From Squalus acanthias (lineage: Eukaryota), in contig JASTWF010000034.1 in the NCBI GenBank assembly GCA_030390025.1, positions 620,001 to 684,000 on the forward strand: 64,000 nt of DNA, given 5' to 3'. This document shows positions 3,771-40,270 of this stretch, piece by piece (within the stretch, counting starts at the first letter, position 1; each line of letters begins with the position of its first letter). The position numbers and the translations under genes were made by a program. The notes under the pieces were generated by a model. That model saw nothing but the letters and a program-made list of their open reading frames with translations, had not been told where the DNA came from and ran no database searches.

Positions 3771-4319
3771 AGGGAGCTTTATGCTGTATCTAACGTGTAC
3801 TGTACCTGCCCTGCGAGTGTTGATGGGAAACTATAGAGGTGAGCTTAACTCTGTATCTAACTCTTGTTGTGCCTGTCCTGGAAGCGTTTGATGGGACAGT
3901 ATACAGGCAGCTTTACTCTGCATTTAACCCGTATTATACGTGTCCTGGGAGTGATTTGATGGAACAGTGTAGAGGCAGCTTTCATCTGTATCTAATCCGT
4001 GCTGCACCTGCCCAGGGAGCGTTTGATGGGACAGATTAGAGGGAGCTTTAATCTGTATCTAATCCGTGCTGCACCTGCCCTGGGAGTGTTTGATTGGACA
4101 GTATAGAGGGAGCTTTACTCTGTCCAACTCGTGTTCTCCCTGTCCTGGACAGGTTTGATGGGACAGTGAAAAGGGAGCTGTACTCTGTATCACATATGGT
4201 CTGAATGTGTCCTGGAAGTGTTTGATGGGATAGTGTAGAGGGAGCTTTGCTCTGTTTCTAACTCCCGCTGTACCTGCCCTGGGAGTGTTTGATGGGACAG
4301 TTTAGAGGAAGCTTTACTC

Positions 4320-5244: not shown

Positions 5245-6788
5245 TTCAATGTTGTGAGCGTTCCTGCCTCTACCACCCTTTAAGGGAGTGAGCTCCAGAT
5301 TTCAACCACCCTCTGGATGAAAAAGTTTTGCCTCAAATCCCCTCTAAACCTCCTGCCCCTTACCTTGAAACTATGCTCCTGGTTATTGACCCCCCCTACG
5401 AAGGGAAGAATTTCCTTTTTATCCACCCTAGCTATGCCCCTCATAATTTTGTACACCTCAATCAGGTCCCCCCTCAGCCTTCTCTGCTCTAAGGAAAACA
5501 ACCCCATCCTGTCCAGTCTCTCTTCACTGCTGAAACGCTCCAGCCCAGGTAACATCCTGGTGAATCTCCTCTGCACCCTCTCCAATGCAATCACATCCCT
5601 CCTATAGTGTGGTGACCAGAACTGCACACAGTATTCCAGCTGTGGCCTAACCAGCGTTTTGTACAGCTCCATCATAACCTCCCTGCTCTTATATTCTATG
5701 CCTCGGCTAATGAAGGCAAGTATCCAATATGCCTTTTTAACCACCTAATCTACCTGTCCTGCTGCCTTCAGGGATCTATGTACATGCACGCCAAGGGCCC
5801 TCTGATCCTCTGTCCTTCCTAGGGTCCTACCATGCATTGTGTATTCCCTTGCCTTGTTTGTCCTCCCAAAATGCATCACCTCACACTTTTCAGGGTTAAA
5901 TTCCATTTGCCACTGTTCTGCCCATCTAACCATCCCGTCTATATCGTCCTGTAGTCTGAGGCTTCCCTTCTCGCTATTTACCACTCCACCAATTTTCGTG
6001 TCATCTGCGAACTTACATTCATATCTAAATCATTAATGTACACTATAAACAGCAAAGGACCCAGCACCGATCCCTGCGGTACACCACTGGACACAGGCTT
6101 CCAGTCACAAAAACTACCTTCGACCATCACCCTCTGCCTCCTGCCACTAAGCCAATTTTGAATCCAATGTGCCAAATTGCTCTGGATCCCATGGCCTCTT
6201 ACCTTCTTGACCAGACTCCCATGTGGGACTTTTTCAAAAGCCTCACTGAAGACCATGTAGACGACATCAACTGCACTATCGTCATCCACACACCTAGTCA
6301 CCCCCTCAAAAAATTCAATCAAATTGGTTCGATATGATCTCCCCCTGACAAAGCCATGCTGACTATCTCTGATTAATTCTTGCCTCTCCAAGTGGAGACT
6401 AATTCTGTCCCTCAGAATTTTTTCCAATAATTTCCCTATCACTGATGTTAGGCTCACTGGCCTGTAATTCCCTGGTTTATCCCTACTACCCTTCTTGAAC
6501 AATGGTACTACGTATGCTGTTCTCCAGTCCTCTGGCACCTCCCCTGTGGTCAGAGAGGTTCTGAAAATTTGTGTCCGAGCCCCTGCAGTCTCCTCCCTTG
6601 CCTCACACAGCAGCCTGGGATACATCCTGTCAGGGCCTGGGGATTTATCATCTTTTAAGCCCGCTAAAACCGCTAGTACCTCTTCCCTCTCAATACTAAT
6701 TTGTTCAAGTATATCACAATCCCCCTGCCTGATTTCTATGCCTCCATCGTCCTTCTCCACAGTGAACACAGATGCAAAATATTCATTT
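5245..6788 (-). mobile_element. CR1 LINE ORF2 fragment (RT and C-terminus; decayed, second subfamily)
   Basis: [49 protein letters not shown] and RRLRGDLIEVYKIM, split by frameshifts and stops. Confidence 0.95.
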
Positions 6789-13500: not shown

Positions 13501-15345
13501 CATATAAACCCACACCCCTCGCTGTAACACTCTCTGATATACTCCATACCCCTCACTGTAACACTCTCTGATATACGCCATACCCCTCACTGTAACACTC
13601 TCTGATATACTCGTTACTCCATACCCCTCACTGTAACACTGTGTTAATTAACCCAACACCGCTCATTGTATTACTCTGATGTACCCCACACCCCTCACTG
13701 TAGATCTTTGATGTAAACGCACTGCCCTGACTACAACACTCTGATATACCCCACACACCCTCACTGTAAATATCGATATACACAACACCCCTCACTGTAA
13801 CACTCTGATATAAACCCACGCCCCTGACTATAACAGTATGATATACCACACACCCCTCAATGTAACACGCTGATGTACCCCACACCCCTCACTGTGACAC
13901 TCGGACATACGACACACGACTCACTGTAACTCTCTGATATACCCCAGACACCTCACTGTAACTCTCTGATGTACTCCACACCCCTCAATGTAACACTCGG
14001 ATATACACCACACACCTCACTACAATACGCTGATAAACCCCACACCCCTCACTGTAACACGCTGATAAACCCCTCAATGTAATTCTCTCTTACATACTGA
14101 TATACCCCACACCCCTTACTGTAACTCTCTGATAAACCCCACGCCCCTCACTGTAACACTGATATACCCCACACCCCTCACTGTAACTCTCTGATAAACC
14201 CCACGCCCCTCACTGTAACACACTGATAAACCCCACACCCCTCACTGTAACACTCTGATACACCACTCAATGTAATTCTCTCTTACATACTGACTACACC
14301 TCCCACCACTCACTGTAACACGCTGATAACCCCCACACCATTCATTGTAACACTCTGATACACCCCACACCCTCATTTGTAAACACTCTGACTAACCCCA
14401 CACCCCTCACTGTAACTCTTGATACACCCCTCAATCTAATTCTCTCTTACATACTGATATACCCCACCACACCCTCACTGTAATAATCTGATAAACCCCA
14501 CACCCCACACTGTTATCACTTGATATGCTGCACACCCCTCACTGTAACACACTGATATACCCCACACCCTCACTAACACTCTGATAAACCCCACCCCTCA
14601 TTGTAACACTCTGATACACCCCTCAATGTAATTCTCTCTAACACACTGATATACCCCACACCACTCACTGTAACACTCTGATAAACCCCACGCCACTCAT
14701 TGTAACACTCTGATACACCCCTCAATGTAATTCTCTCTTACATACTGATATACCCCTCACCCCTCACTGTAATACTCTGATAAACCCCACACCCCACACT
14801 GTTACACTCTGATAAACACCACACCACTCAATGTAACACACTGATATACCCCACACCCCTCACTAACACTCTGATAAACACCACACCCCTCATTGTAACA
14901 CTCTGATACACCCCTCAATGTAATTCTCTCTTACATACTGATATACCCCACACCCCTCACTGTAACTCTCTGATATACCCCACTTCCCTCACTGTAACAC
15001 TGATATACCCCACACCCCACACTGTTACACTCTGACATACCCCACACCCCTCACTGTAACACTGATATACCCCACACCTCACACTGTTACACTCTGATAT
15101 ACCCCACACCCCTCACTGTAACACTGATATACCCCACACCCCACACTGTTACACTCTGATGTACCCCACACCACTCACTGTAACACTCTGATATACCCCA
15201 CACCACTCACTGTAACACTGATATACACCACACCCCACACTGTAACTCTGATAAAACCCACACACCTCATTGTAACACTCTGATACACCCCTCAATGTAA
15301 TTCTCTCTTACATACTGATACACCCCACACCACTCACTGTTGTCA
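10515..15345. repeat. ~32-bp minisatellite, unit CCCCTCACTGTAACACTCTGATATACTCCATA / ...ATACCCCACA, interrupted by a CR1
   Basis: Directly visible. Homogeneous core ~11990-13600 with diverged flanks. Confidence 0.95.
11123..11951 (+). mobile_element. CR1 LINE 3' end with a nested opposite-strand CR1 tail (~11531-11695)
   Basis: IPGKAGLSYEMRL...GDLIEALKII...FRTEMR breaks at ~11530 and resumes at GACATTTCTTCACACAGAGGGTGGTG. It ends in a TTCTTACATTCTTATGTTCTTA tail. Confidence 0.92.
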
Positions 15346-15609
15346 CTGCCACTTTAATCCCATGGGCTTCAATGTTGGTAATATGTGATCCTTTATCAAG
15401 CACCTTTTGTAATGTTTGGGAAATTGGGAAAGTGTGAGTTGTATCAATCATACAACGATAGAATTGGAGATCCAAGTGCGGTTGACAATTTGTTTAGCGT
15501 ACTTGACGCCCCGCTCTGATCACAGGCCTCATCTGGTTTCAATCAATGAATTATAAAATCATTGATTTTAATCCTATTTTATTATTTCGATGTATTTGTT
15601 CTCAGACTA

Positions 15610-15787
15610 GGGGTGACGCTGTCAAGGTTGGTATCACTTGTCCATCCCTAGTTACCCATGAGAAAATGGTGGGCCTTCATCTTGATCCGCTGCAGTCCGT
15701 GTGGTGAAGGTACTCCCACAATACTGTTACTGAAGGATTTTCAAGCTTTTGACCCAGTGACGATGAAAGAACGGCGATATATTTGAA
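15610..15787 (-). mobile_element. Decayed 3' end of a non-LTR retroelement (same family as 34991-35345)
   Basis: Matches 35030-35190 (CCGCTGCAGTCC..GTGGTGAAGGTACTCCCACA..TTTTGACCCAG..GATGAA). Confidence 0.75.
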
Positions 15788-16171
15788 GGGTACGGTAGCA
15801 TAGTGGTTATGTTGCTGGACTCGTTAATACCAGATGACTCGACAAATGATCCAGAGACATGTGTTCAAATCCCAAAAGCTGGGGGAATTTAAATGCCATT
15901 AATTAAACAAATCTGGAATGAAAAGCTTGTGTAAATCTGGAATAAAACCCAATTGGTTCACTAATGGCCTTTTGGGAAGGAAATCTGCCTTCCTCACCTG
16001 TTCTGGCTGAAATGTGACTTCAGACCCACTGCAATGTGGTTGACTCTTAACTGGTCTCTGTAATGGGCCATCAAGACACTCGCTTGTCTCAGGCGGCTTA
16101 CCACCCCATTCTCAAGGGCAATTAGGGATGGGCAGTAAATGCTGGCCTTGTCAGTCGTGCCCACATCCCAA
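15788..16171 (+). mobile_element. tRNA-derived SINE with a LINE-derived 3' tail
   Basis: A-box-like GGTAGCATAGTGGTT, B-box-like GTTCAAATCCC, and a 3' tail CTCAAGGGCAATTAGGGATGGGCAGTAAATGCTGGCC shared with the LINE end at ~35000. Confidence 0.8.
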
Positions 16172-16479
16172 CAATTAGTTATTCAAATGATTTATTAAGT
16201 GTCAATGATTGAAAACGCATCATAATGGTCATAATGATTTATAAAGGGTTATAAAAGATCTGTAAAGTGGTGTAATGATTTTAAAGGTTTATAATGACTA
16301 AAAAAGTCCTGGTGCCAGGCCATCTCCTCCCAGGGCTGGGGTGCTCGGTGTCCTGTGGGCCGTGCCGGGCCAGGCTGCTCCGCCTCGCCGCCCGCTCTCA
16401 CAGTAACCGGGATTCCAACTGCTCCCGCCATCCGGACACTCACCTCCCGCCGCCAGGGAAAGACCCCGAGTGACGGCCG

Positions 16480-19400
16480 CAATCTTTGTACGGGGCCCCA
16501 GAGCCGCCATCTTTGTGCGGAGCCCTAGAGCCGCAATCCTTGTGCGGGGCCCCAGAGCCGCAATCGTTGTGCAGGGCCCCAGATCCGCCATCTTTGTGCG
16601 GGGCCCAATAGCCGCCATCTTTCAGTCGGGCGCAGGAGCCACCATTTTTGTGCTGGGCCCTAGAGCCGCCATCTTTGTGCTGGGCGTGGGGATGGGGGAG
16701 AGCCGCCATCATTGCGCGGGGCATCAGTGCCGCCATCTTTCTGCGGGGCGCGGGTGCCCCCACCTTTGTGCTTGGACCCAGAGCTGCCATTTGTGTGCGG
16801 GGCCCCAGAGCCGCCATCTTTCTGCTGTGTCCCAGAGCCGTCATCTTTCTGCTGGGTCCCAGAGCCGCCATCTTTGTGCCTGGACACAGAGCAGCCATCT
16901 TTGTGCTGGGTTCCAGTGCCGCCATCTTTTTGCAGTGCCCCAGAGGCGCCATCTTTGTGCGGAGCCCATGAGCCGCCATTTTTGGGCGGGAACCAGAGCC
17001 GCCATCTTTATGCGGAGCCCCGGAGCCGCCATCATTGTGCTTGCTCCCCAGAGCCGCCATCTTTGTGCGGAGCCCATGAGCCGCTATTTTTGGGCGCGAA
17101 CCAGAGCCGCCATCTTTATGCGGAGCCCCGGAGCCCCCATCATTGTGCTTGCTCCCCAGAGCCGCCATCCTTGTGCTGGGCCCGAGAGCTGCCTTCTTTG
17201 TGCGGGGAACTAGAGCTGCCATCTTTGTGCGGTGCCCCAGAGCCGCCATTTTTGTGCGGGAACCAGAGCCGCCATCTTTGTGCGGGGCCCCAGATCCGCC
17301 ATCTTTTTGCGGGAGCCCCGGAGCCTCCATTTTTGTGCGGGAACCAGAGCCGCCATCTTTGTGCGGGGCCCCAGATCCGCCGTCTTTGTGCGGAGCCCCG
17401 GAGCCTCCATCTTTGTGCTGGGCCCCAGAGCCGCCGTCTTTGTGCGGGGCCCCAGAGCCGCCGTCTTTGTGCGGGGCCCCAGAGCCGCCGTCTTTGTGCG
17501 GAGCCCCGGAGCCTCCATCTTTGTGCTGGGCCCCAGAGCCGCCGTCTTTGTGCGGGGCCCCAGAGCCGCCGTCTTTGTGCGGGGCCCCAGAGCCGCCGTC
17601 TTTGTGCTGGGCCCCAGAGCCGCCTTCTTTGTGCTGGGCCCAGAGCCGCCGTCTTTGTGCTGGGCCCCAGAGCCGCCGTCTTTGTGCTGGGCCCCAGAGC
17701 GCCGTCTTTGTGCTGGGCCCCAGAGCCCGCCGTCTTTGTGCTGGGCCCCAGAGCCGCCGTCTTTGTGCTGGGCCCCAGAGCCGCCGTCTTTGTGCTGAGC
17801 CCCAGACCCGCCGTCTTTGTGCTGGGCCCCAGAGCCGCCGTCTTTGTGCTGGGCCCCAGACCCGCCGTCTTTGTGCTGGGCCCCAGAGTCGCCGTCTTTG
17901 TGCTGGGCCCCAGACCCGCTGTCTTTGTGCTGGGCCCCAGAGTCGCCGTCTTTGTGCTGAGCCCCAGAGCCGCCGTCTTTGTGCGGGGACCCGGAGCCGC
18001 CATCGTTGTGCGGGGCCCACCCCAGAGCCGCCGTCTTTGTGCTGGGCCCCAGAGCCGCCGTCTTTGTGCGGGGCCCCAGAGCCGCCGTCTTTGTGCGGGG
18101 CCCCAGAGCCGCCGTCTTTGTGCGGGGCCCCAGAGCCGCCGTCTTTGTGCGGGCCCCAGAGCCGCCTTCTTTGTGCTGGGCCCCAGAGCCGCCATCTTTG
18201 TGCGGGGCCCCAGAGCCGCCATCTTTGTGCGGGGCCCCAGAGCCGCCATCTTTGTGCGGGGCCCCAGAGCCGCCATCTTTATGCGGGCCCCGGAGCCGCC
18301 ATCTTTATGCGGGGCCCCGAGCCGCCATCTTTGTGCGGGGCCCCAGAGCCGCCATCTTTGTGCGGGGCCCCAGAGCCGCCATCTTGTGCGGGGCCCCAGA
18401 GCCGCCATCTTTATGCTGGGCCCCGGAGCCGCCATCTTTATGCGGGGCCCCAGAGCCGCCATCTTTATGCGGGGCCCCAGAGCCGCCATCTTTGTGCGGG
18501 GCCCCAGAGCCGCCATCTTTGTGCGGGGCCCCAGAGCCGCCATCTTTATGCGGGGCCCCAGAGCCGCCATCTTTGTGCGGGGCCCCAGAGCCGCCGTCTT
18601 TGTGCGGGGCCCCAGAGCCGCCATCTTTGTGCGGGCCCCAGAGCCGCCATCTTTGTGCGGGGCCCCAGAGCCGCCATCTTTATGCGAGGTCCCCAGAGCA
18701 GCCGTCTTTGTGCTGAGCCCCAGACCCGCCATCTTTGTGCGTGGCCCCGAGAGCCGCCATCTTTGTGCGGGGCCCCAGAGCCGCCATCTTTGTGCTGGTC
18801 CCAGAGCCGCCATCTTTGTGCGGGGCCCCAGAGCCGCTGTCTTTGTGCTGGGCCCCGGAGCCGCCATCTTTGTGCTGGGCCCAGAGCCGCCGTCTTTGTG
18901 CGGGGCCCCAGAGCCGCCGTCTTTGTGCTGGTGCCCAGAGCCGCCATCTATGGTGCGGGCCCCAGAGCCGCCGTCTTTGTGCGGGGCCCCAGAGCCGCCA
19001 TCTTTATGCGGGTCCCCAGAGCCGCCATCTTTATGCGGGGCCCCGGAGCCGCATCTTTATGCGGGGGCACCGGAGCCGCCATCTTTGTGCGGGGCCCCAG
19101 AGCCGCCATCTTTGTGCGGGGCCCAGAGCCGCCATCTTTGTGCTGGGCCCCAGAGCCGCCGTCTTTGTGCGGGCCCCAGAGCCGCCGTCTTTGTGCTGGG
19201 CCCCAGAGCCGCCGTCTTTGTGCTGGGCCCCAGAGCCGCCGTCTTTGTGCTGGGCCCCAGAGCCCGCAGTCTTTGTGCTGGGCCCCAGAGCCCGCCGTCT
19301 TTGTGCTGGGCCCCAGAGCCGCCGTCTTTGTGCTGGGCCCCAGAGCCGCCGTCTTTGTGCGGGGCCCCAGAGCCGCCGTCTTTGTGCTGAGCCCCAGAGC

Positions 19401-22400
19401 CGCCATCTTTGTGCTGAGCCCCAGAGCCGCCGTCTTTGTGCGGGGCCCCAGAGCCGCCATCTTTGTGCTGGGCCCCAGAGCCGCCATCTTTGTGCGGGGC
19501 CCCAGAGCCGCCATCTTTTTGCGGGGAACCAGAGCCGCCCTCTTTGTGCGGTGCCCCAGAGCCGCCATTTTTGTGCGGCAACCAGAGCCGCCATGTTTAT
19601 GCGGGGCCCCGGAGCCGCCATATTTGTGCGGGGCCCCAGAGCCGCCATCTTTGTGCTGAGTCCCAGAGCCGCCATCTTTGTGCGGGTCCCCAGAGCCGCC
19701 ATCTATGTGTGGGACCCAGAGCCGCCATGTTTATGCGGGGCCCCGGAGCCCCCATATTGGTGCAGGGCCCCAGAGCCGCCATCTGTGTGCTGAGTCCCAG
19801 AGCCGCCATCTTTGTGCGGGTCCCCAGAGCCGCCATCTTTATGCGGTGCCCCGGAGCCGCCATCTTTGTGCGGGGCCCCGGAGCCGCCATCTTTATGTGG
19901 GGCCCCGGAGCCGCCATCTTTGTGCTGAGCCCCAGAGCCGCCATCTATGTGTGGGACCCAGAGCCGCCGTCTTTATGCGGGGCCCCAGTCCCGCCATCTT
20001 TATGCGGGGCCCCGGAGCGGCCATCTTTATGCGGGGCCCCGGTGCCGCCATCTTTATGCGGGGCCCCGGAGCCGCCATCTTTGTGCTGAGCCCCAGAGTC
20101 TCCATCTTTGTGCGGGGCCCCAGAGTCTCCATCTTTGTGCTGGGCCCCAGAGCCGCCATCTTTGTGCGGGGCCCCAGAGCCGGCATCTTTTTGCGGGGAA
20201 CCAGAGCCGCCCTCTTTGTGCGGTGCCCCAGAGCCGCCATTTTTGTGCGGCAACCAGAGCCGCCATGTTTATGCGGGGCCCCGGAGCCGCCATATTTGTG
20301 CGGGGCCCCAGAGCCGCCATCTTTGTGCTGAGTCCCAGAGCCGCCATCTTTGTGCGGATCCCAGAGCCGCCATCTATGTGTGGGACCCAGAGCCGCCATG
20401 TTTATGCGGGGCCCCGGAGCCCCCATATTGGTGCAGGGCCCCAGAGCCGCCATCTGTGTGCTGAGTCCCAGAGCCGCCATCTTTGTGCGGGTCCCCAGAG
20501 CCGCCATCTTTATGCGGTGCCCCGGAGCCGCCATCTTTGTGCGGGGCCCCGGAGCCGCCATCTTTTTGCGGGGCCCCGGAGCCGCCATCTTTGTGCTGAG
20601 CCCCAGAGCCGCCATCTATGTGTGGGACCCAGAGCCGCCGTCTTTATGCGGGGCCCCAGTCCCGCCATCTTTATGCGGGGCCCCGGAGCGGCCATCTTTA
20701 TGCGGGGCCCCGGTGCCGCCATCTTTATGCGGGGCCCCGGAGCCGCCATCTTTGTGCTGAGCCCCGGAGCCGCCATCTATGTGTGGGACCCAGAGCCGCC
20801 GTCTTTATGCGGGGCCCCAGACCCGCCATCTTTATGCGGGGCTCCGGAGCGGCCATCTTTATGCGGGGCCCCGCAGCCGCCATCTTTGTGCTGAGCCCCA
20901 GAGCCGCCATCTTTGTGCGGGGCCCCAGAGCCGCCATCTTTGTGCGGGGCCCCAGAGCCGCCGTCTTTATGCGCGGCCCCAGAGCCGCCATCTTTGTGCG
21001 GGGCCCCAGAGCCGCAATCCTTGTGCGGGGCCCCAGAGCCGCCATCTTTGTGCGGGGCCCCAGAGCCGCCGTCTTTATGCGGGGCCCCAGAGCCGCCGTC
21101 TTTGTGCGGGACCCCAGAGCCGCCATCTTTATGCAGAGCCCCGGACCCGCCATCTTTATGCGGGGCCCCGGAGCCGCCATTTTTATGCAGGGCCCAGGAG
21201 CCGCCACCTTTGTGCGGGGCCCCAGAGCCGGCATCTTTGTGCGGGGCCCCAGAGCCGCCGTCTTTATGCGGGGCCCCAGAGCTGCCATCTCTGTGCGGGG
21301 GCCCCAGAGCCGCCGTCTTTATGAGGGGCCCCAGAGCCGCCATCTTTGTGCGGGGCCACAGAGCCGCCATCTTTGTGAGGGGCCCCAGAGCCACCATCTC
21401 TGTGCGGGGGCCCCAGAGCCGCCGTCTTTATTAGGGGCCCAATAGCCGCCACCTTTGTGCGGAGCCCCATATCCGCAATCCTTGTGCGGGGCACCAGAGC
21501 CGCAATCCTTGTTCTGGGCCCCAGAGCCGCCATCTTTATGCGGGGCGCCAGAGCCGCCGTCTTTGTGCGGGGCCCCAGAGCTGCCATCTTTATGCGGGGC
21601 GCCAGTGCCGCCGTCTTTATGCGGGGCCCCAGAGCCGCCATCTAAGTGCTGAGCCCCAGAGCTGCCGTCTTTGTGCGGGGCCCCGGAGCCGCCGTCTTTG
21701 TGCGGGGCCCCAGACCCGCCATCTTTGTGCGGGCCCCAGAGCCGCCATCTTTGTGCGGGGCCCCAGAGCCGCATCTTTGTGCGGGGCCCCAGAGCCGCCA
21801 TCTTTGTGCGGGGCCCCAGAGCCGCCATCTTTGTGCGGGGCCCCAGAGCCGCCATCTTTGTGCGGGGCCCCAGAGCCGCCATCTTTGTGCGGAGCCCCAG
21901 AGCCGCCATCTTTGTGCTGGGCCCCAGAGCCGCCATCTTTGTGCGGGGCCCCAGAGCCGCCATCTTTGTGCGGGGCCCAGAGCCGCCATCTTTGTGCGGG
22001 GCCCCAGAGCCGCCATCTTTGTGCGGGCCCCAGAGCCGCCATATTTATGCGGGCACCCAGAGCCGCCATCTTTGTGCGGGCCCCAGAGCCGCCACCTTTG
22101 TGCGGGGCCCCAGAGCCGCCATCTTTGTGCTGAGCTCCAGAGCCGCCATCTTTGTGCGGGGCCCCAGAGCCGCCATATTTGTGCGGGCCCCAGAGCCGCC
22201 GTCTTTATGCACGGCCCCAGAGCCGCCATCTTTGTGCGGGGCCCCAGAGCCGCCATCTCTGTGCGGGGCCCCAGAGCCGCCATCTCTGTGCGTGGCCCCA
22301 GAACCGCCATCTCTGTGTGGGGCCCCAGAGCCGCCATCTTTATGCGGAGCCCCGGATCCGCCATCTTTATGCGGGGCCCCGGAGCCGCCATCTTTATGCG

Positions 22401-25400
22401 GGGCCCCGGAGCCGCCATCTTTATGAGGGGCCCAAGAGCCGCCATCTTTGTGCGGGGCCACAGAGCCGCCATCTTTGTGAGGGGCCCCAGAGCCGCCATC
22501 TCTGTGCGGGGGCCCCAGAGCCGCCGTCTTTATTAGGGGCCCAATAGCCGCCACCTTTGTGCGGAGCCCCATATCCGCAATCCTTGTGCGGGGCACCAGA
22601 GCCGCAATCCTTGTTCTGGGCCCCAGAGCCGCCATCTTTATGCGGGGCGCCAGAGCCGCCGTCTTTGTGCGGGGCCCCAGAGCTGCCATCTTTATGCGGG
22701 GCCCCCAGAGCCGCCGTCTTTATGAGGGGCCCCAGGGCCGCCATCTTTGTGCGGGGCCCCAGAGCCGCCGTCTTTTCTGCGGCGCCCCAGAGCCGCCATC
22801 TTTGTGCGGGGCCCCGAAGCCGCCATCTTTGTGCGGCTCCCCAGAGCCGCCATCTTTATGCGGGGCCCCAGAGCTGCCGTCTTTGTGCAGAGCCCGGAGC
22901 CTCCATCTTTGTGCGGGGCCCCGGATCCGCCGTCTTTGTGCGGGGCCCCAGAGCCGCAATCCTTGTGCGGGGCCCCAGAGCCGCCGTCTTTATGCGGGGC
23001 CCCAGAGCCGCCGTCTTTGTGCGGGACCCCAGAGCCGCCATCTTTATGCAGAGCCCCGGACCCGCCATCTTTATGCGGGGCCCGGAGCCGCCATTTTTAT
23101 GCAGGGCCCCGGAGCTGCCACCTTTGTGCGGGGCCCCAGAGCCGGCATCTTTGTGCGGGGCCCCAGAGCCGCCGTCTTTATGCGGGGCCCCAGAGCTGCC
23201 ATCTCTGTGCGGGGGCCCCAGAGCCGCCGTCTTTATGAGGGGCCCCAGAGCCGCCATCTTTGTGCGGGGCCACAGAGCCGCCATCTTTGTGAGGGCCCCA
23301 GAGCCACCATCTCTGTGCGGGGGCCCCAGAGCCGCCGTCTTTATGAGGGGCCCCAGAGCCGCCATCTTTGTGAGGGGCCCCAGAGCCGCCATCTCTGTGC
23401 GGGGGCCCCAGAGCCGCCGTCTTTATTAGGGGCCCAATAGCCGCCACCTTTGTGCGGAGCCCCATATCCGCAATCCTTGTGCGGGGCACCAGAGCCGCCA
23501 TCTTTATGCGGGGCGCCAGAGCCGCCGTCTTTGTGCGGGGCCCCAGAGCTGCCATCTTTATGCGGGGCGCCAGTGCCGCCGTCTTTATGCGGGGCCCCAG
23601 AGCCGCCATCTTTGTGCGGGGCCCCAGAGCCGCCATCTTTGTGCGGGGCCCCAGAGCCGCCATCTTTGTGCTGGGCCCCAGACCCGCTGTCTTTGTGCTG
23701 GGCCCCAGAGCCGCCGTCTTTGTGCTGGGCCCCAGAGTCGCCGTCTTTGTGCTGGGCCCCAGAGCCGCCATCTTTGTGCTGAGCCCCAGACCCGCCGTCT
23801 TTGTGCTGGGCCCCAGAGCCGCCGTCTTTGTGCTGAGCCCCAGAGCCGCCATCTTTGTGCTGAGCCCCAGAGCCGCCACCTTTGTGCGGGGCCCCAGAGC
23901 CGCCATCTTTGTGCTGAGCTCCAGAGCCGCCATCTTTGTGCGGGGCCCCAGAGCCGCCATATTTGTGCGGGGCCCCAGAGCCGCCGTCTTTATGCACGGC
24001 CCCAGAGCCGCCATCTTTGTGCGGGGCCCCAGAGCCGCAATCCATGTGCGGGGCCCCAGAGCCGCCATCTCTGTGCGTGGCCCCAGAGCCGCCATCTCTG
24101 TGCGGGGCCCCAGAGCCGCCATCTTTATGCGGAGCCCCGGATCCGCCATCTTTATGCGGGGCCCCGGAGCCGCCATCTTTATGCGGGGCCCCGGAGCCGC
24201 CATCTTTGTGCGGGGCCCCAGAGCCGCCATCTTTGTGCGGGGCCCCAGAGCCGCCATCTTTGTGCGGGGCCCCAGAGCCGCCGTCTTTATTCGGGGCCCC
24301 ATAGCCGCCACCTTTGTGCGGGGCCCCATAGCCGCAATCCTTGTGCGGGGCCCCAGAGCCGCAATCCTTGTGCTGGGCCCCAGAGCCGCCATCTTTGTGC
24401 GGGGCCCCAGAGCCGCCATCTTTGTGCGGGGCCCCAGAGCTGCCATCTCTGTGCGGGGGCCCCAGAGCCGCCGTCTTTATGAGGGGCCCCAGGGCCGCCA
24501 TCTTTGTGCGGGGCCCCAGAGCCGCCGTCTTTGTGCGGGGCCCCAGAGCCGCCATCTTTGTGCGGGGCCCCGAAGCCGCCATCTTTGTGCGGCTCCCCAG
24601 AGCCGCCATCTTTATGCGGGGCCCCAGAGCTGCCGTCTTTGTGCGGAGCCCCGGAGCCTCCATCTTTGTGCGGGGCCCCGGAGCCGCCGTCTTTGTGCGG
24701 GGCCCCGGATCCGCCATCTTTGTGCGGGTCCCCGGAGCCGCCATCTTTGTGCGGGGCCCCAGAGCCGCCGTCTTTGTGCGGGGACCCGGAGCCGCCATCT
24801 TTGTGCGGGGCCCACCCCAGAGCCGCCGTCTTTGTGCGGGGCTGCAGAGCCGCCGTCTTTGTGCGGGGCCCCAGAGCCGCTGTCTTTGTGCGGGGCCCCA
24901 GAGCCGCCGTCTTTGTGCGGGTCCCCAGAGCCGCCATCTTTGTGCTGGGCCCCAGAGCCGCCGTCTTTGTGCTGGGCCCCAGAGCCGGCGTCTTTGTGCT
25001 GGGCCCCAGACCCGCCGTCTTTGTGCTGGGCCCCAGAGCCGCCATCTTTGTGCTGAGTCCCAGAGCCGCCATCTATATGTGGGACCCAGAGCCGCCATGT
25101 TTATGCGGGGCCCCGGAGCCCCCATATTGATGCAGGGCCCCAGAGCCGCCATCTGTGTGCTGAGTCCCAGAGCCGCCATCTTTGTGCGGGTCCCCAGAGC
25201 CGCCATCTTTATGCGGGGCCCCGGAGCCGCCATCTTTGTGCTGAGCCCCAGAGCCGCCATCTATGTGTGGGACCCAGAGCCGCCGTCTTTATGCGGGGCC
25301 CCAGTCCCGCCATCTTTAGGCGGGGCCCCGGAGCGGCCATCTTTATGCGGGGCCCCGGTGCCGCCATCTTTATGCGGGGCCCCGGAGCCGCCATCTTTGT

Positions 25401-28400
25401 GCTGAGCCCCAGAGCCGCCATCTATGTGTGGGACCCAGAGCCGCCGTCTTTATGCGGGGCCCCAGACCCGCCATCTTTATGCGGGGCCCCGGAGCGGCCA
25501 TCTTTATGCGGGGCCCCGGAGCCGCCATCTTCATGCGGTGCCCCGGAGCCGCCATATTTGTGCGGGTCCCCAGAGCCGCCATCTTTGTGCGGGGCCCCAG
25601 AGCCGCCATCTTTGTGCTGAGCCCCAGAGCTGCCATCTTTGTGCGGGTCCCCAGAGCAGCCATCTTTGTGCTGAGCCCCAGAGCCGCCATCTTTTTGCGG
25701 GGAACCAGAGCCGCCATCTTTGTGCGGGTCCCCAGAGCCGCCATCTATGTGTGGGACCCAGAGCCGCCATATTTATGCGGGGCCCCGGAGCTGCCATATT
25801 TGTGCGGGGCCCCAGAGCCGCCATCATTATGCTGAGTCCCAGAGCCGCCATCTTTGTGTGGGTCCCCAGAGCCGCCATCTATGTGTGGGACCCAGAGCCG
25901 CCATCTTTGTGCGGTTCCCCAGAGCCGCCATCTATGTGTGGGACCCAGAGCCGCCATATTTATGCGGGGCCCCGGAGCCCCCATATTGGTGCGGGGCCCC
26001 AGAGCCGCCATCTTTGTGCGGGTCCCCAGACCCGCCATCTTTATGCGGGGCTCCGGAGCGGCCAGCTCTATGCGGGGCCCCGGAGCCGCCATATTTGTGC
26101 GGGTCCCCAGAGCCGCCATCTTTGTGCAGGGCCCCAGAGCCGCCATCTTTGTGCGGTTCCCCAGAGCCACCATATTTATGCGGGGCCCCAGAGCCGCCAT
26201 TTTTGTGCTGAGCCCCAGAGCCGCCATCTTTGTGCGGGTCCCCAGAGCAGCCATCTTTGTGCTGAGCCCCAGAGCCGCCATCTTTGTGCGTGGCCGAGGA
26301 GCCGCCATATTTGTGCGGGGCCCCAGACCCGCCATCTTTGTGTTGAGTCACAGAGCCGCCATCTTTGTGCGGGTCCCCAGAGCCGCTATCTTTATGCGGG
26401 GCCACGGAGCCGCCAGCTTTGTGCGGGGCCCCGGAGCCGCCATCTTTATGCGGGGCCCCGGAGCCGCCATCTTTGTGCTGAGCCCCGGAGCCGCCATCTA
26501 TGTGTGGGACCCGGAGCCGCCGTCTTTATACGGGGCCACAGAGCCGCCATCTTTATGCGGGGCCCCGGAGCAGCCATCTTTATGCGGGGCACCGGAGCCG
26601 CCATCTTTATGCGGGGCTCCGGAGCCGCCATATTTGTGCGGGGCCCCAGAGCCGCCATCTTTGAGCTGAGCCCCAGAGCCGCCGTCTTTATGCGCGGCCC
26701 CGGAGCCGCCATCTTTGTGCGGGTCCCCAGAGCCGCCATCTTTATGCGGGGCCCCGGAGCCGCCATCTTTGTGCTGAGCCCCAGAGCCGCCATCTATGTG
26801 TGGGACCCAGAGCCGCCGTCTTTATGCGGGGCCCCAGTCCCGCCATCTTTAGGCGGGGCCCCGGAGCGGCCATCTTTATGCGGGGCCCCGGAGCCGCCAT
26901 CTTTGTGCTGAGCCCCAGAGCCGCCATCTATGTGTGGGACCCAGAGCCGCCGTCTTTATGCGGGGCCCCAGACCCGCCATCTTTATGCGGGGCCCCGGAG
27001 CGGCCATCTTTATGCGGGGCCCCGGAGCCGCCATCTTCATGCGGTGCCCCGGAGCCGCCATATTTGTGCGGGTCCCCAGAGCCGCCATCTTTGTGCGGGG
27101 CCCCAGAGCCGCCATCTTTGTGCTGAGCCCCAGAGCTGCCATCTTTGTGCGGGTCCCCAGAGCAGCCATCTTTGTGCTGAGCCCCAGAGCCGCCATCTTT
27201 TTGCGGGGAACCAGAGCCGCCATCTTTGTGCGGGTCCCCAGAGCCGCCATCTATGTGTGGGACCCAGAGCCGCCATGTTTATGCGGGGCCCCGGAGCCGC
27301 CATATTTGTGCGGGGCCCCAGAGCTGCCATCATTATGCTGAGTCCCAGAGCCGCCATCTTTGTGTGGGTCCCCAGAGCCGCCATCTATGTGTGGGACCCA
27401 GAGCCGCCATCTTTGTGCGGTTCCCCAGAGCCGCCATCTATGTGTGGGACCCAGAGCCGCCATATTTATGCGGGGCCCCGGAGCCCCCATATTGGTGCGG
27501 GGCCCCAGAGCCGCCATCTTTGTGCGGGTCCCCAGACCCGCCATCTTTATGCGGGGCTCCGGAGCGGCCAGCTCTATGCGGGGCCCCGGAGCCGCCATAT
27601 TTGTGCGGGTCCCCAGAGCCGCCATCTTTGTGCAGGGCCCCAGAGCCGCCATCTTTGTGCGGTTCCCCAGAGCCACCATATTTATGCGGGGCCCCAGAGC
27701 CGCCATTTTTGTGCTGAGCCCCAGAGCCGCCATCTTTGTGCGGGTCCCCAGAGCAGCCATCTTTGTGCTGAGCCCCAGAGCCGCCATCTTTGTGCGTGGC
27801 CGAGGAGCCGCCATATTTGTGCGGGGCCCCAGACCCGCCATCTTTGTGTTGAGTCACAGAGCCGCCATCTTTGTGCGGGTCCCCAGAGCCGCTATCTTTA
27901 TGCGGGGCCACGGAGCCGCCAGCTTTGTGCGGGGCCCCGGAGCCGCCATCTTTATGCGGGGCCCCGGAGCCGCCATCTTTGTGCTGAGCCCCGGAGCCGC
28001 CATCTATGTGTGGGACCCGGAGCCGCCGTCTTTATACGGGGCCACAGAGCCGCCATCTTTATGCGGGGCCCCGGAGCAGCCATCTTTATGCGGGGCACCG
28101 GAGCCGCCATCTTTATGCGGGGCTCCGGAGCCGCCATATTTGTGCGGGGCCCCAGAGCCGCCATCTTTGAGCTGAGCCCCAGAGCCGCCGTCTTTATGCG
28201 CGGCCCCAGAGCCGCCATCTTTGTGCGGGGCTCCAGAGCCGCAATCCTTGTGCGGGGCCCCAGAGCCGCAATCCTTGTGCTTAGCCTCAGAGCCGCCATC
28301 TCTGTGCGGGGCCCCAGAGCCGCCATCATTGTGCGGGTCCCCAGAGCCGCCATCTTTATGCGGAGCCCCGGACCCGCCATCTTTATGCGGGGCCCCGGAG

Positions 28401-30635
28401 CCGCCATTTTTATGCTGGGCCCAGGAGCCGCCATCTTTGTGCGGGGCCCCAGAGCCGCCATCTTTGTGCGGGGCCCCAGAGCTGCCATCTCTGTGCTGGG
28501 CCCCATAGCCGCCATCTTTATGCGGGGCCCCAGAGCCGCCATCTCTGTGCGGGGGCCCCAGAGCCGCCGTCTTTATGAGGGGCCCCAGAGCCGCCATCTT
28601 TGTGCGGGGCACCAGAGCCGCAATCCTTGTGCTGGGCCCCAGAGCCGCCATCTTTATGCGGGGCGCCAGAGCCGCCGTCTTTGTGCTGAGCCCCAGAGCC
28701 GCCGTCTTTGTGCTGAGCCCCAGAGCCGCCATCTTTGTGCTGAGCCCCAGAGCCGCCATCTTTGTGCGGGGCCCCAGAGCCGCCATCTTTGTGCTGAGCC
28801 CCAGAGCCGCCATCTTTGTGCGGGGCCCCAGAGCCGCCATCTAAGTGCTGAGCCCCAGAGCCGCCGTCTTTGTGCTGAGCCCCAGAGCCGCCGTCTTTGT
28901 GCGGGGCCCCAGAGCCGCCATCTTTGTGCGGAGCCCCTGAGCCGCCATCTTTGTGCGGGTCCCCAGAGCCGCCATCTTTATGCGGGTCCCCAGAGCCGCC
29001 GTCTTTGTGCGGGGCCCCGGAGCCGTCATCTTTGTGCGGGGCCCCGGAGCCGTCATCTTTGTGCGGGGCCCCGGAGCCGCCGTCTTTGTGCGGGTCCCCG
29101 GAGCCGCCGTCTTTGTGCGGGTCCCCAGAGCCGCCGTCTTTGTGCGAGGCCCCAGAGCCGCCGTCTTTGTGCTGGGCCCCAGAGCCGCCATTTTTGTGCT
29201 GGGCCCCAGAGCCGCCGTCTTTGTGCTGGGCCCCAGAGCCGCCGTCTTTGTGCTGGGCCCCAGAGCCGCCGTATTTGTGCTGGGCCCCAGAGCCGCCGTC
29301 TTTGTGCTGGGCCCCAGAGCCGCCGTCTTTGTGCTGGGCCCCAGAGCCGCCATCTTTTTGCGGGGAACCAGAGCCGCCCTCTTTGTGCGGTGCCCCAGAG
29401 CCGCCATTTTTGTGCGGGAACCAGAGCCGCCATGTTTATGCGGGGCCCCGGAGCCGCCATATTTGTGCGGTGCCCCAGAGCCGCCATCTTTGTGCTGAGT
29501 CCCAGAGCCGCCATCTTTGTGCGGGTCCCCAGAGCCGCCATCTATGTGTGGGACCCAGAGCCGCCATCTTTGTGTGGGTCCCCAGAGCCGCCATCTATAT
29601 GTGGGACCCAGAGCCGCCATGTTTATGCGGGGCCCCTGAGCCCCCATATTGGTGCAGGGCCCCAGAGCCGCCATCTGTGTGCTGAGTCCCAGAGCCGCCA
29701 TCTTTGTGCGGGTCCCCAGAGCCGCCATCTTTTTGCGGGGCCCCGGAGCCGCCATCTTTTTGCGGGGCCCCGGAGCCGCCATCTTTATTCGGGGCCCCGG
29801 AGCCACCATCTTTGTGCTGAGCCCCACACCCGCCGTCTTTGTGCTGAGCCCCAGACCCGCCGTCTTTGTGCTGAGCCCCAGACCCGCTGTCTTCATGCTG
29901 AGCCCCAGACCCGCTGTCTTCATGCTGAGCCCCAGACCCGCCGTCTTTGTGCTGAGCCACAGACCCGCCATCCTTGTGCTGAGCCCCAGACCCGCTGTCT
30001 TTGTGCTGAGCCCCAGAGCCGCCGTCTTTGTGCTGGGCCCCAGAGCCGCCGTCTTTGTGCTGGGCCCCAGAGCCGCCTGTCTTTGTGCTGAGCCCCAGAC
30101 CCGCTGTCTTTGTGCTGAGCCCCAGACCCGCCGTCTTTGTGCTGAGCCCCAGAGCCGCCGTCTTTGTGCTGAGCCCCAGACCCGCCGTCTTTGTGCTGAG
30201 CCCCAGAGCCGCTGTCTTTGTGCTGAGCCCCAGAGCCGCTGTCTTTGTGCTGAGCCCCAGACCCGCTGTCTTTGTGCTGAGCCCCAGAGCCGCTGTCTTT
30301 GTGCTGAGCCCCAGAGCCGCTGTCTTTGTGCTGAGCCCCAGACCCGCCGTCTTTGTGCTGAGCCCCAGACCCGCTGTCTTTGTGCTGAGCCCCAGACCCG
30401 CTGTCTTTCTGCTGAGCCCCAGACCCGCTGTCTTTGTGCTGAGCCCCTGACCCGCTGTCTTTGTGCTGAGCCCCAGAGCCGCCGTCTTTGTGCTGGGCCC
30501 CAGAGCCGCCATCTTTCTGCTCAGCCCCAGACCCGCTGTCTTTGTGCTGGTCCCCAGAGCCGCCGTCTTTGTGCTGAGCCACAGAGCCGCTGTCGTTGTG
30601 CTGGGCCCCAGAGCCGCCGTCTTTGTGCGGGGGGC
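16480..30635. repeat. 14-kb GC/CpG-rich 27-bp minisatellite, unit GAGCCGCCATCTTTGTGCGGGGCCCCA (~520 copies), carrying the YY1 consensus motif
   Basis: Directly visible. The 9-codon unit explains the stop-free ORFs (KMAALGPRT, GAPEPPSLC etc.). The core CCGCCATCTT matches the established YY1 motif CCGCCATNTT. Confidence 0.97.
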
Positions 30636-30692
30636 CACATTATCAGGCCCAGGGAACTGTCAACTCTTGGACTGCAAAGTCTCCGCTTCTTC

Positions 30693-31594
30693 TCATCCTT
30701 TAATGAATTTTACAATCAGAGTAAAGGGATATTTCCCCACATTCTTCAACTGCTCTCTGAACTTAGTCTGGGTCACGGCGTAAATCCCAGTGTTTGTGCA
30801 GCAACTCAGCAGCTGCAGCATGAATCCCAGTTCCATGACATAACCAGGTAGAATTACAGACTGATACCCCAACCACGTCATCCGGTTCCATATAAAATAC
30901 ACCATAAACACTGCCCATAACAGGATGAAATTGCCGGAGATAACAAGCAGTAAAATGATGGATTTCCTGCGGCTCTCCATCTCTGGGTCTCTGGGACTCT
31001 CCCCACTGCTGGGACCCCGGAGTCTCCTGCGGGCTCTGCTGGCCACTAAAATGTGTCTGACGGTGACAGCATTGAGCAGCAGAATCACCACAAATGGGAC
31101 ACACGGGGTGAGAATATAATGAAGGAGCTCGATTGGTCCCCAGACCCGTGAATACTGAACATCCATTGTGACATCACAAAACCAGGGGAGGTTCCGAAGC
31201 CAATACGACCTGACAACATAAAATACCAGGTGATGTTCTTTAAACCGCTCAGCACAGTCACTGTTCCCAGAACCACAGCCGCCGTTTTCTCGGTGCAATA
31301 TTTAGTTTTCAGCTTCTGGCAACAAATGGCCACAAATCGATCAAAGGTGAAAGTGACGGTGAACCAGACAGAACAGTCTGTGGCTGCGAACAGCAGGACG
31401 GCGTGGATATTACACACGGGGATCGGAATACACGAAATCAAACTGTTCCCTATAAACAATCGGAATGTGCCTCAATATCAGGTCGAGGATAACGACCAGT
31501 AGATCCGCCGCTGCCATGGCCACCAGGTAGCGAGTGACACATTTGGAGAGACCACACTTTCCCCGAGACAGGATCACAATCGTCAATAAGTTCA
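30693..31594 (-). CDS. Exon 2 of the GPR139-like GPCR (TM1 end to C-terminus; two frameshifts)
   Basis: Preceded by the acceptor CTGTTTATTTCCCTTCCTCACAG. ORFs 31410-31595, 31085-31459 and 30693-31298 are consecutive pieces of one 7TM protein. Confidence 0.88.
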
Positions 31595-32907
31595 CTGTGA
31601 GGAAGGGAAATAAACAGGGAAATTATTCATCAGGCTGGGAGCAAAAGCAGCAGTTTGATGGAATTCGGGGTGAAATCTGCAACTCATTAGCGACATTGAA
31701 TGATATAATCTAATCCTATTACCTGTGGAGCTGAATACAGGGCTTATTGTAAGAATAATCGGGAATACATTGTGGAATCAGTAACTGAAATGGGAATAAA
31801 TACAACATGAAAGTAACAGATGTTTGATCAAGGAGAGATTAAATGATCGATCTAAATTTAGCCCAGCAGACAAAAGCACCGCCCGAGGTACCAGGGACAC
31901 AAAGGACCAGACCCTCTCAGGAAGCCTTCGTGTCCCGGGATCAGTCAGCATTTGGAGCGGTGCAGTTCGCTTCTGTGCCCCTGTGTTCGGGAGGGGGAAA
32001 TCCCGCTTGGATTCCTGCTCTTGGTTACAATATCCATTCTATTTAGAACTGAAAATGAATGCAACAGCAAAATACAGAAACTGCAACCTTGGCATGCAAT
32101 AATTACAGGCAACTGTATGTGAAATGTACGGATGTAATACGACAGTGCTAAGATAATAAATACAAGTGCACTGCAGTTATAAAGATAACTGGCTATCAGA
32201 TATGTTTTGAAGATTGAGTTTTCTGCATTTTTGTTGAAATATACAAATTCTAGCTCATTGAAAGGAAGATTTATCAAGTAACATTGCAAATAATGGACTC
32301 TGAATTAAAGTAAATAGTGATGATTGACCAGGTAATGTCCCACTAAATGCATTTATCAGTATCGAAATCAGACGACTTAACCCACAGGCAAAGTGCCGCC
32401 GAATGCTGTTGTAAAGTATCTGAACACAAATGGAAGAGATTTATCCTTGTACTTTTTCACCTGTTGTTTCCAACTTGTGCAGAGAATATTAGACGAGAAG
32501 ATATCAAAGGATTTTCTTATCCTCAGTACTTCAGTTACAATCAGCTGGGATTGTTTATCCTGAAGGACAGCAGGAGGCAATAGAGAATCACACTGGGTCT
32601 CACTGACAGATCCACTGTACTGTGACAGACGGGCATGGGATCCAATTGTAAATTCAAAACAATGATCAGAAAGAAATGTATTGAAATCTGGCTGAATTAA
32701 CGTTTTGTGAGAATGTAATTTATCCGTTTAATCCAACTTTAACCATCAGAAGCAGTGCCAATAATGCAGAACTGGAGAGGGTGGGAAAGGAGACACTGAC
32801 TGGAACTGAATGATTGCGGATATTTCAGACATTTAACGATGTGGATGTGATCTGCCAGGATTTGTTTCTGTGACTCTGTGAGTAACCATACCGAGCATTA
32901 GGTGAAA

Positions 32908-33848: not shown

Positions 33849-34306
33849 GTGTGTGACCACAGACAGCTCATACTCGCCGTTAATGCCCGCTATCCTGGCA
33901 GCAGCACAATGCTTTTATTCTGCGCCAGACCGGTGTTGCACACATCTTCCAACCACCGTGTAAACCTAGTGGATGGCTCCTCGGGGACAAGGGTTATCCA
34001 CTCTGCACCTGGCTGATGACACCGATCCATAACCCCAACACCCCTGTCGAACTGCACTACAATGAGAGCTATAGCGCCACCAGGAACATGATAGAGCAGG
34101 CGTTCGGCGTCTTGAAACAACGGTTCCGCTTTCTAGATCACTCAGGAGGAGCCCTGCAATACTCTCCCGAGCGAGTCTCCCTCTTGATTGTTGTGTGCTG
34201 TATGCTTTATAACATTGCTATCATGAGGACCCAGCCATTGCCACCAGGGATTGGTCCACCCCCTGAGGGGGAGGAGGAAGAGGGAGAGGAGGACGAAAAG
34301 GAGTAG
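33849..34306 (+). pseudogene. Harbinger DDE transposase (HARBI1-like) C-terminal remnant
   Basis: VCDHRQLILAVNARYPGSS-(frameshift)-NAFILRQ...WLLGDKGYP...YNESYSATRNMIEQAFGVLKQRFRFL...IVVCCMLYNIA plus an acidic tail. The N-terminal half is missing. Confidence 0.88.
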
Positions 34307-34660: not shown

Positions 34661-34990
34661 ATAGTTGAATAGCCATTACTGTGTGCAGCCATGTGTTTGG
34701 CAGAGGTGCCTACCATAGTTGAATAGCCATTACTGTGTGCAGCCATGTGTTTGGCAGATTTGCCTCCCACAGTTGAATAGCCATTACTGTGTGCAGCCAT
34801 GTGTTTGGCAGATATGCCTATTATAGTTGAATAGCCATTACTGTGTGCAGCCATGTGTTTGGCAGATGTGCCTATCATAGTTGAATAGCCATTACTGTAT
34901 ACAGCCATGTGTTTGGCAGATGTGCCTACCACAGTTGAATAGCCGTTATTATGTGCAGCCATGTGTTTGGCAGATGTGCCTCCCATAGTA
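34661..34990. repeat. 54-bp tandem repeat x6, unit ATAGTTGAATAGCCATTACTGTGTGCAGCCATGTGTTTGGCAGATGTGCCTACC
   Basis: Unit starts at 34661 and 34715, etc. Confidence 0.95.
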
Positions 34991-37744: not shown

Positions 37745-38055
37745 GGTTTACAGAGCATGTGTGTAAACGCACGAAGCGTGGTCAATAAGGTGGGTGAGCT
37801 GCAGGCGCAAATAGCCACATAGGAAAATGATGTCGTGACGATAACAGAGACTTGGCTCAAAAAGGGCAGGATTGGGTACTAAATATTCCCAGGTATAAGA
37901 TGTTCGGGAAAGATAGGGAAGGAAAGAAAGGAGGTGGGTTAGCAATATTGATTAAGGAGAATATTAGTGCTGGAGAAAGAGGATGTCTTCGAGGGGTCAA
38001 GGACAGAATCTATTTGGTTAGAGTTAAGAAACAATAGAGGTACCATTACACTGCT
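37745..38055 (+). mobile_element. CR1 LINE endonuclease N-terminal fragment
   Basis: NARSVVNKVGEL...DVVTITETWL...GQDWVLNIPRYKMFGKDREGKKGGGLAILIKENI...RNNRGTITLL. Confidence 0.85.
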
Positions 38056-38698
38056 CCCACCTCAATCCAGGAATGTGATTCCCAGGGCTGCCTAGATTAC
38101 ACTGCTCCCACCTCAATCCAGGAATGTGATTCCCAGGGCTGCCTAGATTACACTGCTCCCACCTCAATCCAAGAATTTCATTCCCAGGGCTGCCTAGATT
38201 ACACTGCTCCCACCTCAATCCAAGAATTTGATTCCCAGGCACGGCCTAGATTACACTGCTCCCACCTCAGTCCAGGAATTTAATTCCCAGGGCTGCCTAG
38301 ATTACACTGCTCCCACCTCAATCCAAGAATTTGATTCCCAGGGCCACCTAGATTACACTGCTCCCACCTCAGTCCAGGAATTTGATTCCCAGGACAGCCT
38401 AGATTACACTGCTCCCGCCTCAATCCAGGAAGTTAATTCCCAGGACAGCCTAGATTACACTGCTCCCACCTCAGTCCAGGAATTTAATTCCCAGGGCTGC
38501 CTAGATTACACTGCTCCCGCCTCAGTCCAGGAATGTGATTCCCAGGGCCGCCTAGATTAAACTGCTCCCGCCTCAATCCAGGAATTTCATTCCCAGGGTT
38601 GCCTAGATTACACTGCTCCCACCTCAATCCAGGAATTTGATTCCCATGGTTGCCTACATTACACTGCTCCCGACTCAATCCAGGAATTTCATTCCCAG
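38045..38698. repeat. 51-bp tandem repeat (~13 copies), unit ATTACACTGCTCCCACCTCAATCCAGGAATTTGATTCCCAGGGCTGCCTAG
   Basis: Unit starts at 38045 and 38096, etc. Confidence 0.95.
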
Positions 38699-39689: not shown

Positions 39690-40270
39690 AGAATTGCATT
39701 GATATAGCGCTTTTCACAACCCTGGGATGTACCAAAGCGCTTTACAGCCAATGAAGTACTTTTGAAGTGTAGTCACTGTTGTAATGTATGAAACGCGGCA
39801 GCCAATTTGCGCACAGCAAGCTCCCACAATCAGCAATGTGATAATGACCAGATAATCTGCTTTAGTGATGTTGATTGAGATAAATATTGGCCAGAACACT
39901 GGGGTTAACTCTGCTGCTCTTCATCAATATAATTCCATGGGATCTTTTACCTCAACCTTAGAGAAAAGACGGGGCCTCGTTTTAAAGTCTCTTCCGAAAG
40001 ACGGCCACTCCGACAGTGCAGTGCTCCCTCAGTAATGCCCCTCTGACTGTGCAGTACTCCCCCAGTACTGCCCCTCCGACAGTGCAGTGTTCCCTCAGTA
40101 ATGCCCCTCTGACTGTGCAGTACTCCCCCAGTACTGCCCCTCCAACACTGCAGCGCTTCCTCAGTACTGCAGTGGCGTGTTAGCCTAGTTTCCTGTACTC
40201 ACGTCGCTGGAGTGGGACTTGAACCCACAATCTTCTAACAAAGAGCCGAGAGTGCTATGAGCTGAGCCGA
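39690..40270 (-). mobile_element. Second DeuSINE-type SINE with an internal ~33-bp tandem amplification
   Basis: Collinear with 37310-37735. Extra copies of (C)AGTACTGCCCCTCCGACAGTGCAG..CTCCCTC at ~40010-40172. Confidence 0.82.

Follow-up and report, generated by a model that had tools for sequence, protein, structure and literature searches.

The window examined here, a stretch of 64,000 nucleotides from Squalus acanthias (contig JASTWF010000034.1, positions 620,001 to 684,000 of the forward strand), carries a long tandem array whose 27-bp unit contains a binding motif for YY1, and which ends beside a copy of a GPR139-like G-protein-coupled receptor (GPCR) gene. Tandem Repeats Finder (TRF) places this array at 16476-30632, with a period of 27, 524.7 copies, and 85% matches. 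Cyclic alignment resolves 525 full 27-bp units from 16474 to about 30637, of which 207 are distinct and 72 carry insertions or deletions. An earlier inspection of the letters (hereafter the sequence-only reading) had described a 14-kb array of about 520 such units, and this description holds. The head-to-tail units fall within the 10-100 bp range of minisatellites, the GC content of the array is 67%, and its observed/expected CpG ratio is 0.66. The array and its principal internal features are as follows.

16474..30637, plus strand: 27-bp minisatellite of 525 full units, with the YY1 motif in unit columns 5-13 and in one orientation throughout
16474..17340, plus strand: left edge of the array, older and more diverged, 32 units, CCAT core kept in 25 of 32
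17536..17993, plus strand: 17 successive core-broken units
25363..28374, plus strand: tandem duplication of a 56-unit, 1506-bp block, with 1479 of 1505 aligned bases identical
29962..30637, plus strand: GPCR-proximal end, homogenized to a motif-broken variant, core kept in 2 of the last 25 units

As the sequence-only reading proposed, the unit is built around the YY1 motif: it fits the published consensus cgCCATntt (PMC2665242) and differs from a Peg3 site by one base (PMC11602158). The published YY1 consensus CGCCATNTT occurs in 250 exact copies in the window, compared to 0.97 expected from shuffles, and among the matches listed (200 of the 250) all lie on the plus strand and within the array. 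No copy of CCGCCATNTT was found outside the array. The array holds 188 copies of GCCGCCATCTTT and 320 of GCCAT. The sequence-only reading had suggested a count of intact versus broken units. When the motif is scored against the published consensus (cgCCATntt; PMC2665242, PMC5526879) rather than a JASPAR matrix, 331 of the 525 units qualify under the ECMFinder rule (at most one flank mismatch), 9 retain the core only, and 185 have a broken CCAT core. The statement that many variants keep GCCAT is correct but gives one side of the picture, as the A column of the core is among the four most variable in the unit (A 380, G 139). This single A-to-G change accounts for 139 of the 185 broken cores.

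In mouse L1 elements, YY1 binding was lost in both cases in which one base of the GCCAT core was altered (PMC11602158), and by analogy the A-to-G change in the array probably abolishes YY1 binding as well. The zinc fingers that form the YY1 DNA-binding domain are reported to be unchanged across vertebrates, over ~600 million years, in a source that makes no mention of sharks (PMC1904287). Because of this constancy, unmethylated intact units are expected to bind YY1 in vitro, and such binding would not by itself be expected to show function.

Edge divergence, variant domains, and block duplication together form the pattern by which slippage and unequal exchange are recognized in minisatellites, and all three are present. 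Units at the edges differ from the consensus at about 4.0 positions each, compared to 1.6-3.3 for inner units, and unit variants are grouped in domains along the array. We infer that the array grew by slippage and unequal exchange. It is also polar, with the core intact in 25 of 32 left-edge units versus 5 of 33 units at the far end (2 of the 25 nearest the receptor), and it contains core-free runs of 17, 9, and 19 units. Decayed copies of the unit are not detectable in either flank, and neither flank recurs elsewhere in the window.

The 72 units with insertions or deletions might suggest that the 14-kb length is partly an assembly artifact, arising from over-expanded or merged arrays. The summed ratio of array to flank depth also varies from about 15 to 470 between the runs described below, where depth does not equal copy number. 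Such an artifact is extremely improbable, given that the 207 distinct units lie in ordered domains and that the two halves of the largest internal duplication share 98% identity rather than 100%.

Several other properties of the array were recorded. A coding role was considered and rejected: a 296-residue repeat frame has no homologue of 162-518 residues and no Pfam match, and the many reading frames that cross the array are by-products of a 27-mer that is free of stops. No special folding is evident (z=+0.7). Metagenome contigs do not contain the unit pattern, and its three single matches in viral contigs are taken as chance. Non-CpG changes across 16474-30637 include about two transversions for each transition, mainly G-to-T and C-to-A, and the same lean is present in three of the four other window arrays tested. 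Oxidative damage, error-prone repair, and read errors are candidate causes of this excess.

To compare the motif with the rest of the unit, the 207 distinct units were joined in a minimum spanning tree, and mutation events along it were counted with columns matched by base class; A/T columns change less across the whole unit. Motif columns carry 68 events, compared to 74.7 expected from base-class-matched non-motif columns (permutation p=0.23). The motif/spacer event ratio is 0.91, with a Poisson 95% range of 0.66-1.24, and becomes 0.94 without the G/C run. For the left edge, the matched and deduplicated test on 31 distinct units gives p=0.13. The range of the event ratio excludes strong protection of the motif and leaves weak protection open. 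In addition, motif-breaking variants have spread as far as other variants: the median number of copies is 8 for 21 motif variants and 7 for 52 others (p=0.76 for spreading less), and one core-breaking change has reached 139 of the 525 units.

The sequence-only reading had itself named equal mutation rates in the motif and the rest of the unit, along with full methylation and an absence of YY1 occupancy, as what would speak against function; on the rate part, no significant protection was obtained. As the mutation rate of the motif is close to that of the remaining unit, the array is likely a drifting minisatellite rather than a selected control element. The proposal that hundreds of phased sites serve as a YY1 sink, looping anchor, or methylation-switched control element is left unsupported by this lack of significant protection and by the free spread of motif-breaking variants. 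It is further weakened by the near absence of intact sites at the GPCR-proximal end and by an excess of CpG deamination.

This excess also qualifies the earlier description of the CpGs as well retained. Transitions are found at 33 of 848 CpG opportunities versus 50 of 2944 at other C/G bases, a 2.3-fold excess (p=0.0003). The A-to-G core change creates a new CpG, whose C reads T in 19 of 139 such units compared to 3 of 380 otherwise, and five of the seven tree events of that C-to-T change occur on the new-CpG background. Given this excess, including that at the new CpG, the array appears to have been at least partly methylated in the germ line for at least part of the time. The retention of CpGs is what is expected of a homogenizing array and is no sign of an unmethylated state.

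The sequences that flank the array are relevant to its origin and include the following.

16180..16305, no strand assigned: AT-rich stretch, GC 24%, in which TATA-like hexamers and a short repeat of 19 bp occur, adjoining a putative SINE-like (short interspersed element) tail
16306..16473, no strand assigned: CpG-rich 168-bp segment abutting the array, GC 70%, 13 CpG, three GC-box-like hexamers
16294-16473, plus strand: 59-codon open frame whose stop immediately precedes the array, no homologue
30693..31600, minus strand: main exon of a GPR139-like receptor from a shark-expanded family, with two frameshifts, probably a pseudogene

The CpG-rich segment at 16306-16473 is promoter-like by composition only, and it is apparently multicopy. 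Searches of protein and RNA families identified no gene, exon, or start site for the left flank; no RNA family was found at 15300-17400, and a tRNA search returned none. Coding readings of this flank were left without support. The 59-residue frame has no Pfam, Atlas, or library match, an 86-residue minus-strand frame has no Pfam or Atlas match, and contigs from other runs carry 56- or 69-bp deletions in the frame. Among the cross-run differences listed for 16300-16470, 9 of 14 fall at third positions (uncorrected p=0.017, rising to about 0.05 when all three phases are counted). A first exon on the minus strand, with its start codon in the motif and a donor at 16445, is a weakened candidate, as the three runs covering 16442 have GC and not the donor GT. 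The plus-strand acceptor-like bases at 16332 are specific to the window copy.

Conservation from fish to mammals has been described for YY1 sites just downstream of start sites, one of which spans the start codon (PMC554972). Given such sites, the low chance of encountering the motif, and the CpG-rich flank with GC boxes, a promoter-type origin of the seed unit is plausible. Alternatively, the match to YY1 could be coincidental. A neutral array would then have arisen from a GC-rich 27-mer that happened to lie in the 3′ flank of the receptor gene and had no promoter history. The window holds about nine unrelated minisatellite families, implying many units and many possible motifs genome-wide, and the left flank has no identified gene. 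Furthermore, its donor-like (16442) and acceptor-like (16332) bases are peculiar to this copy, and the array begins about 55 bp past the receptor stop with no poly(A) hexamer between them. Nevertheless, the chance that a shuffled 27-mer of the same composition contains the motif is only 4.3e-4 if the 9-mer is required and 8e-5 if the 11-mer is, and the array adjoins the CpG-rich GC-box segment, whose nearest units keep the core best. We therefore consider coincidence doubtful.

The receptor gene lies tail-on to the array, with its stop codon at 30693-30695 on the minus strand. A 157-residue fragment (30696-31166) has 79 homologues, of which the top matches are shark models annotated as “probable G-protein coupled receptor 139” with 83% and 79% identity, and three separate frames match or approach Pfam 7tm_1. 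Alignment to intact relatives reveals that the receptor frame is disrupted by two frameshifts and that three in-frame stops lie between these, and this copy is therefore probably a pseudogene. Thus, the array does lie directly behind a GPCR sequence, as the sequence-only reading stated, but the gene itself is disrupted. When the receptor alignment was used as a query against sequence collections, no loci were returned. On the receptor strand (minus), single-base variants in the array create AATAAA at 21427, 22529, 23422, 24286, and 29784, and the first AATAAA outside the array is at 16191.

The sequence-only reading had also suggested searching related species for the unit. All or part of the stretch is contained in 13 of 15 runs, which come from seven studies and carry seven organism labels; most of the shares are small. 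Contigs of four of the 15 runs (organisms A, B, C, and F) were placed on 16160-16620; these are short, and none spans the array. Unit-like contigs occur in all four of these runs, such that the unit is present in runs of at least three other organisms. Contigs that bridge the left flank and the array were found in A, B, and F (three of the four runs, and two of the three other organisms), and an organism F contig covers 16267-16529 with 20 differences in 263 letters. On the GPCR side, one junction-like contig each from A and F passes from units into letters resembling 30631-30660 (26/30 and 20/30 by eye), and thus this junction is seen in one of the three other organisms. Because the unit and both junctions occur in other organisms, the cassette is old and apparently multicopy. 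The presence of several paralogous cassettes is likewise suggested by the organism B contigs, of which ten cover 16442 and one covers 16302, and by run A, in which 11 of 274 flank bases do not match the window. At 16535, in the third unit, the window carries a core-breaking base that seems to be common in these runs as well: the intact base accounts for only 1561 of 2872 depth in B and 96 of 184 in F, values that are biased by best-fit placement.

These junctions also bear on the idea that, by comparison with mouse L1 Tf, the unit is a retrotransposon's 5′ promoter monomer amplified to excess, for which the CpG-rich segment would be the tether. The layout of YY1-bearing monomers followed by a nonrepeated segment is indeed that of L1 Tf (PMC11602158). 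However, the minus strand holds no open reading frame (ORF) of at least 150 residues between 16440 and a CR1-type reverse-transcriptase fragment at 5978-6625, and neither ORF1 nor ORF2 of a LINE (long interspersed element) lies downstream on that strand. Moreover, both junctions are common to runs of different organisms among the four of 15 examined, which fits inheritance rather than independent insertions. A retrotransposon source is therefore very unlikely.

Tandem arrays of several unrelated families make up 72% of the window. One, at 40774-62593 (21.8 kb), consists of about 700 copies of a CpG-free 31-bp unit and is interrupted at 47025-48698 by an inserted 557-residue reverse-transcriptase ORF (RVT_1). 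Another array, at 1933-3772, comprises 60 copies of a 31-bp unit that corresponds to the 3′ end and donor-like site of an exon-like segment at 1831-1948 (plus strand), which itself has a strong acceptor and a hydrophobic frame but no Pfam or protein match. Small arrays are present at 34661-34989 (period 54), 38045-38698 (period 51), and 40004-40170 (period 33). A CpG-rich stretch upstream of the receptor includes a transposase fragment at 34058-34306 (plus strand; Pfam DDE_Tnp_4), which is presumably of the Harbinger type.

Taken as a whole, the locus is explained with moderate probability by a near-neutral 27-bp minisatellite that grew from a single YY1-type site at a CpG-rich edge and was inherited with duplications of a GPR139-like cassette in sharks. 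According to this proposal, a YY1-type site at the edge of the small CpG-rich segment would have been the seed of the unit. Slippage and unequal exchange would then have expanded this seed into the array, with motif-breaking variants sweeping through it, and the array would have been passed on as the receptor cassette was duplicated. In vivo, the array is predicted to be mostly methylated, with YY1 occupancy that is only incidental.

Some observations weigh against this proposal. The raw divergence over all units is lower in the motif (7.2%) than in the rest (11.0%), and in the 32 left-edge units the values are 8.6% and 19.2% (naive p=1e-4). We do not take this deficit at face value because A/T columns change less everywhere and the copies are not independent, although its significance disappears only once base class is matched and duplicates are taken out (p=0.13). 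Even so, the 95% range of the event ratio allows about one third fewer events in the motif, and spanning-tree counts on 27 columns are approximate, with gene conversion blurring descent. The persistence of the unit in other organisms is a further point, as is the left flank, where no start site supports a promoter origin. Finally, fully methylated vertebrate DNA shows roughly a 10-fold CpG transition excess, and two other arrays in the window show 4.6-4.7-fold (from only 5 and 2.6 events). Because the 2.3-fold excess of the array is lower than both, part of it may be unmethylated.

An opposing possibility assigns the array, or just its left edge, a working role as a YY1 element that would be hypomethylated, would recruit YY1, and would drive, loop, or insulate the CpG-rich segment or the receptor cluster, with single sites free to decay because not all of them would be required. 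The cluster definition of at least three same-direction cgCCATntt sites in 500 bp (PMC2665242) fits the 250 exact sites and the 331 with at most one flank mismatch. Shark YY1 should be able to read the motif, given the unchanged zinc fingers (PMC1904287), and synergy through YY1 has been described between L1 Tf monomers in tandem (PMC11602158). The unit is also kept in other organisms, CpG loss is mild, and redundancy would hide selection on single sites. However, the motif columns have no significant protection, the core is lost in 35% of the units, and a variant that breaks it has been homogenized beside the receptor, a frameshifted gene that is the sole identified neighbor and is approached from its 3′ end. 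The intact base at 16535 is present in only about half of the depth in B and F, subject to the best-fit bias. Moreover, the removal of all seven Peg3 sites altered expression but left imprinting and survival unchanged (PMC5526879). We judge a working element to be unlikely. If the array were unmethylated and bound, its YY1 cluster would far exceed those of Peg3 and Xist, which have 7-12 sites, and would provide a natural setting in which to ask whether a general transcription factor can be titrated or concentrated by satellites.

Less likely still is a conserved shark family of YY1-site minisatellites tied to GPR139-like cassettes, whose unmethylated members would each present as many as hundreds of densely packed, phased YY1 sites, loop or insulate genes of this large receptor family, and be switched by methylation and copy number. 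Such a family would represent a Peg3-like element ~20-fold larger, in a lineage without known imprinting. If the array is instead neutral, as we favor, it is one more GC-rich shark minisatellite, in which a promoter-type motif has been multiplied 500-fold without a sign of selection. The array is thus a warning against reading function from the density of a motif in tandem DNA.

Comparisons with known systems place the array in context. The YY1 clusters in the differentially methylated regions of Peg3 and Xist (PMC2761279, PMC2665242, PMC5526879) resemble it in having many strong CGCCATNTT sites that face one direction, with a CpG in each. Those clusters have about 7 sites within 500 bp or 12 within 2 kb (PMC2761279), whereas the array has 250 in strict 27-bp tandem. 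The Peg3 and Xist sites lie at a promoter or first intron and have demonstrated YY1 binding. Clusters of this type lie within 5 kb of a transcription start site; the array adjoins a CpG-rich flank in which no gene or promoter was identified. Furthermore, their motif is kept while the spacers diverge between species (PMC2665242); within the array, spacers and motif are conserved to a similar degree (ratio 0.91, range 0.66-1.24, p=0.23).

The monomers of the mouse L1 Tf 5′ untranslated region are likewise tandem units that each carry one YY1 site of near-identical sequence, and YY1 binding to them is weakened by methylation (PMC11602158). There, about 3-4 monomers lie upstream of ORF1 in a mobile element, compared to 525 short units without ORF1 in the array. 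The macrosatellites DXZ4 and D4Z4 (PMC3287207, PMC3465993) are also GC-rich tandem repeats with YY1 sites and a possibly methylation-dependent state, and DXZ4 is bound by YY1 in vivo only when hypomethylated. However, their units are ~3 kb long, reach up to ~100 copies, and have demonstrated CTCF or Polycomb binding. The unit of the array is 27 bp, with a single duplication of one 1.5-kb block.

A literature search that covered mainly openly accessible journals found no YY1-motif tandem repeat described for sharks, and within the literature searched the array is undescribed. GC-rich, tandem-repeat-rich regions have been described in elasmobranch genomes, and the array resembles the GC-rich minisatellites of this group in setting, scale, and mode of evolution (10.1101/2025.06.08.657570). 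Unlike generic elasmobranch minisatellites of this kind, its unit contains a canonical transcription-factor motif.

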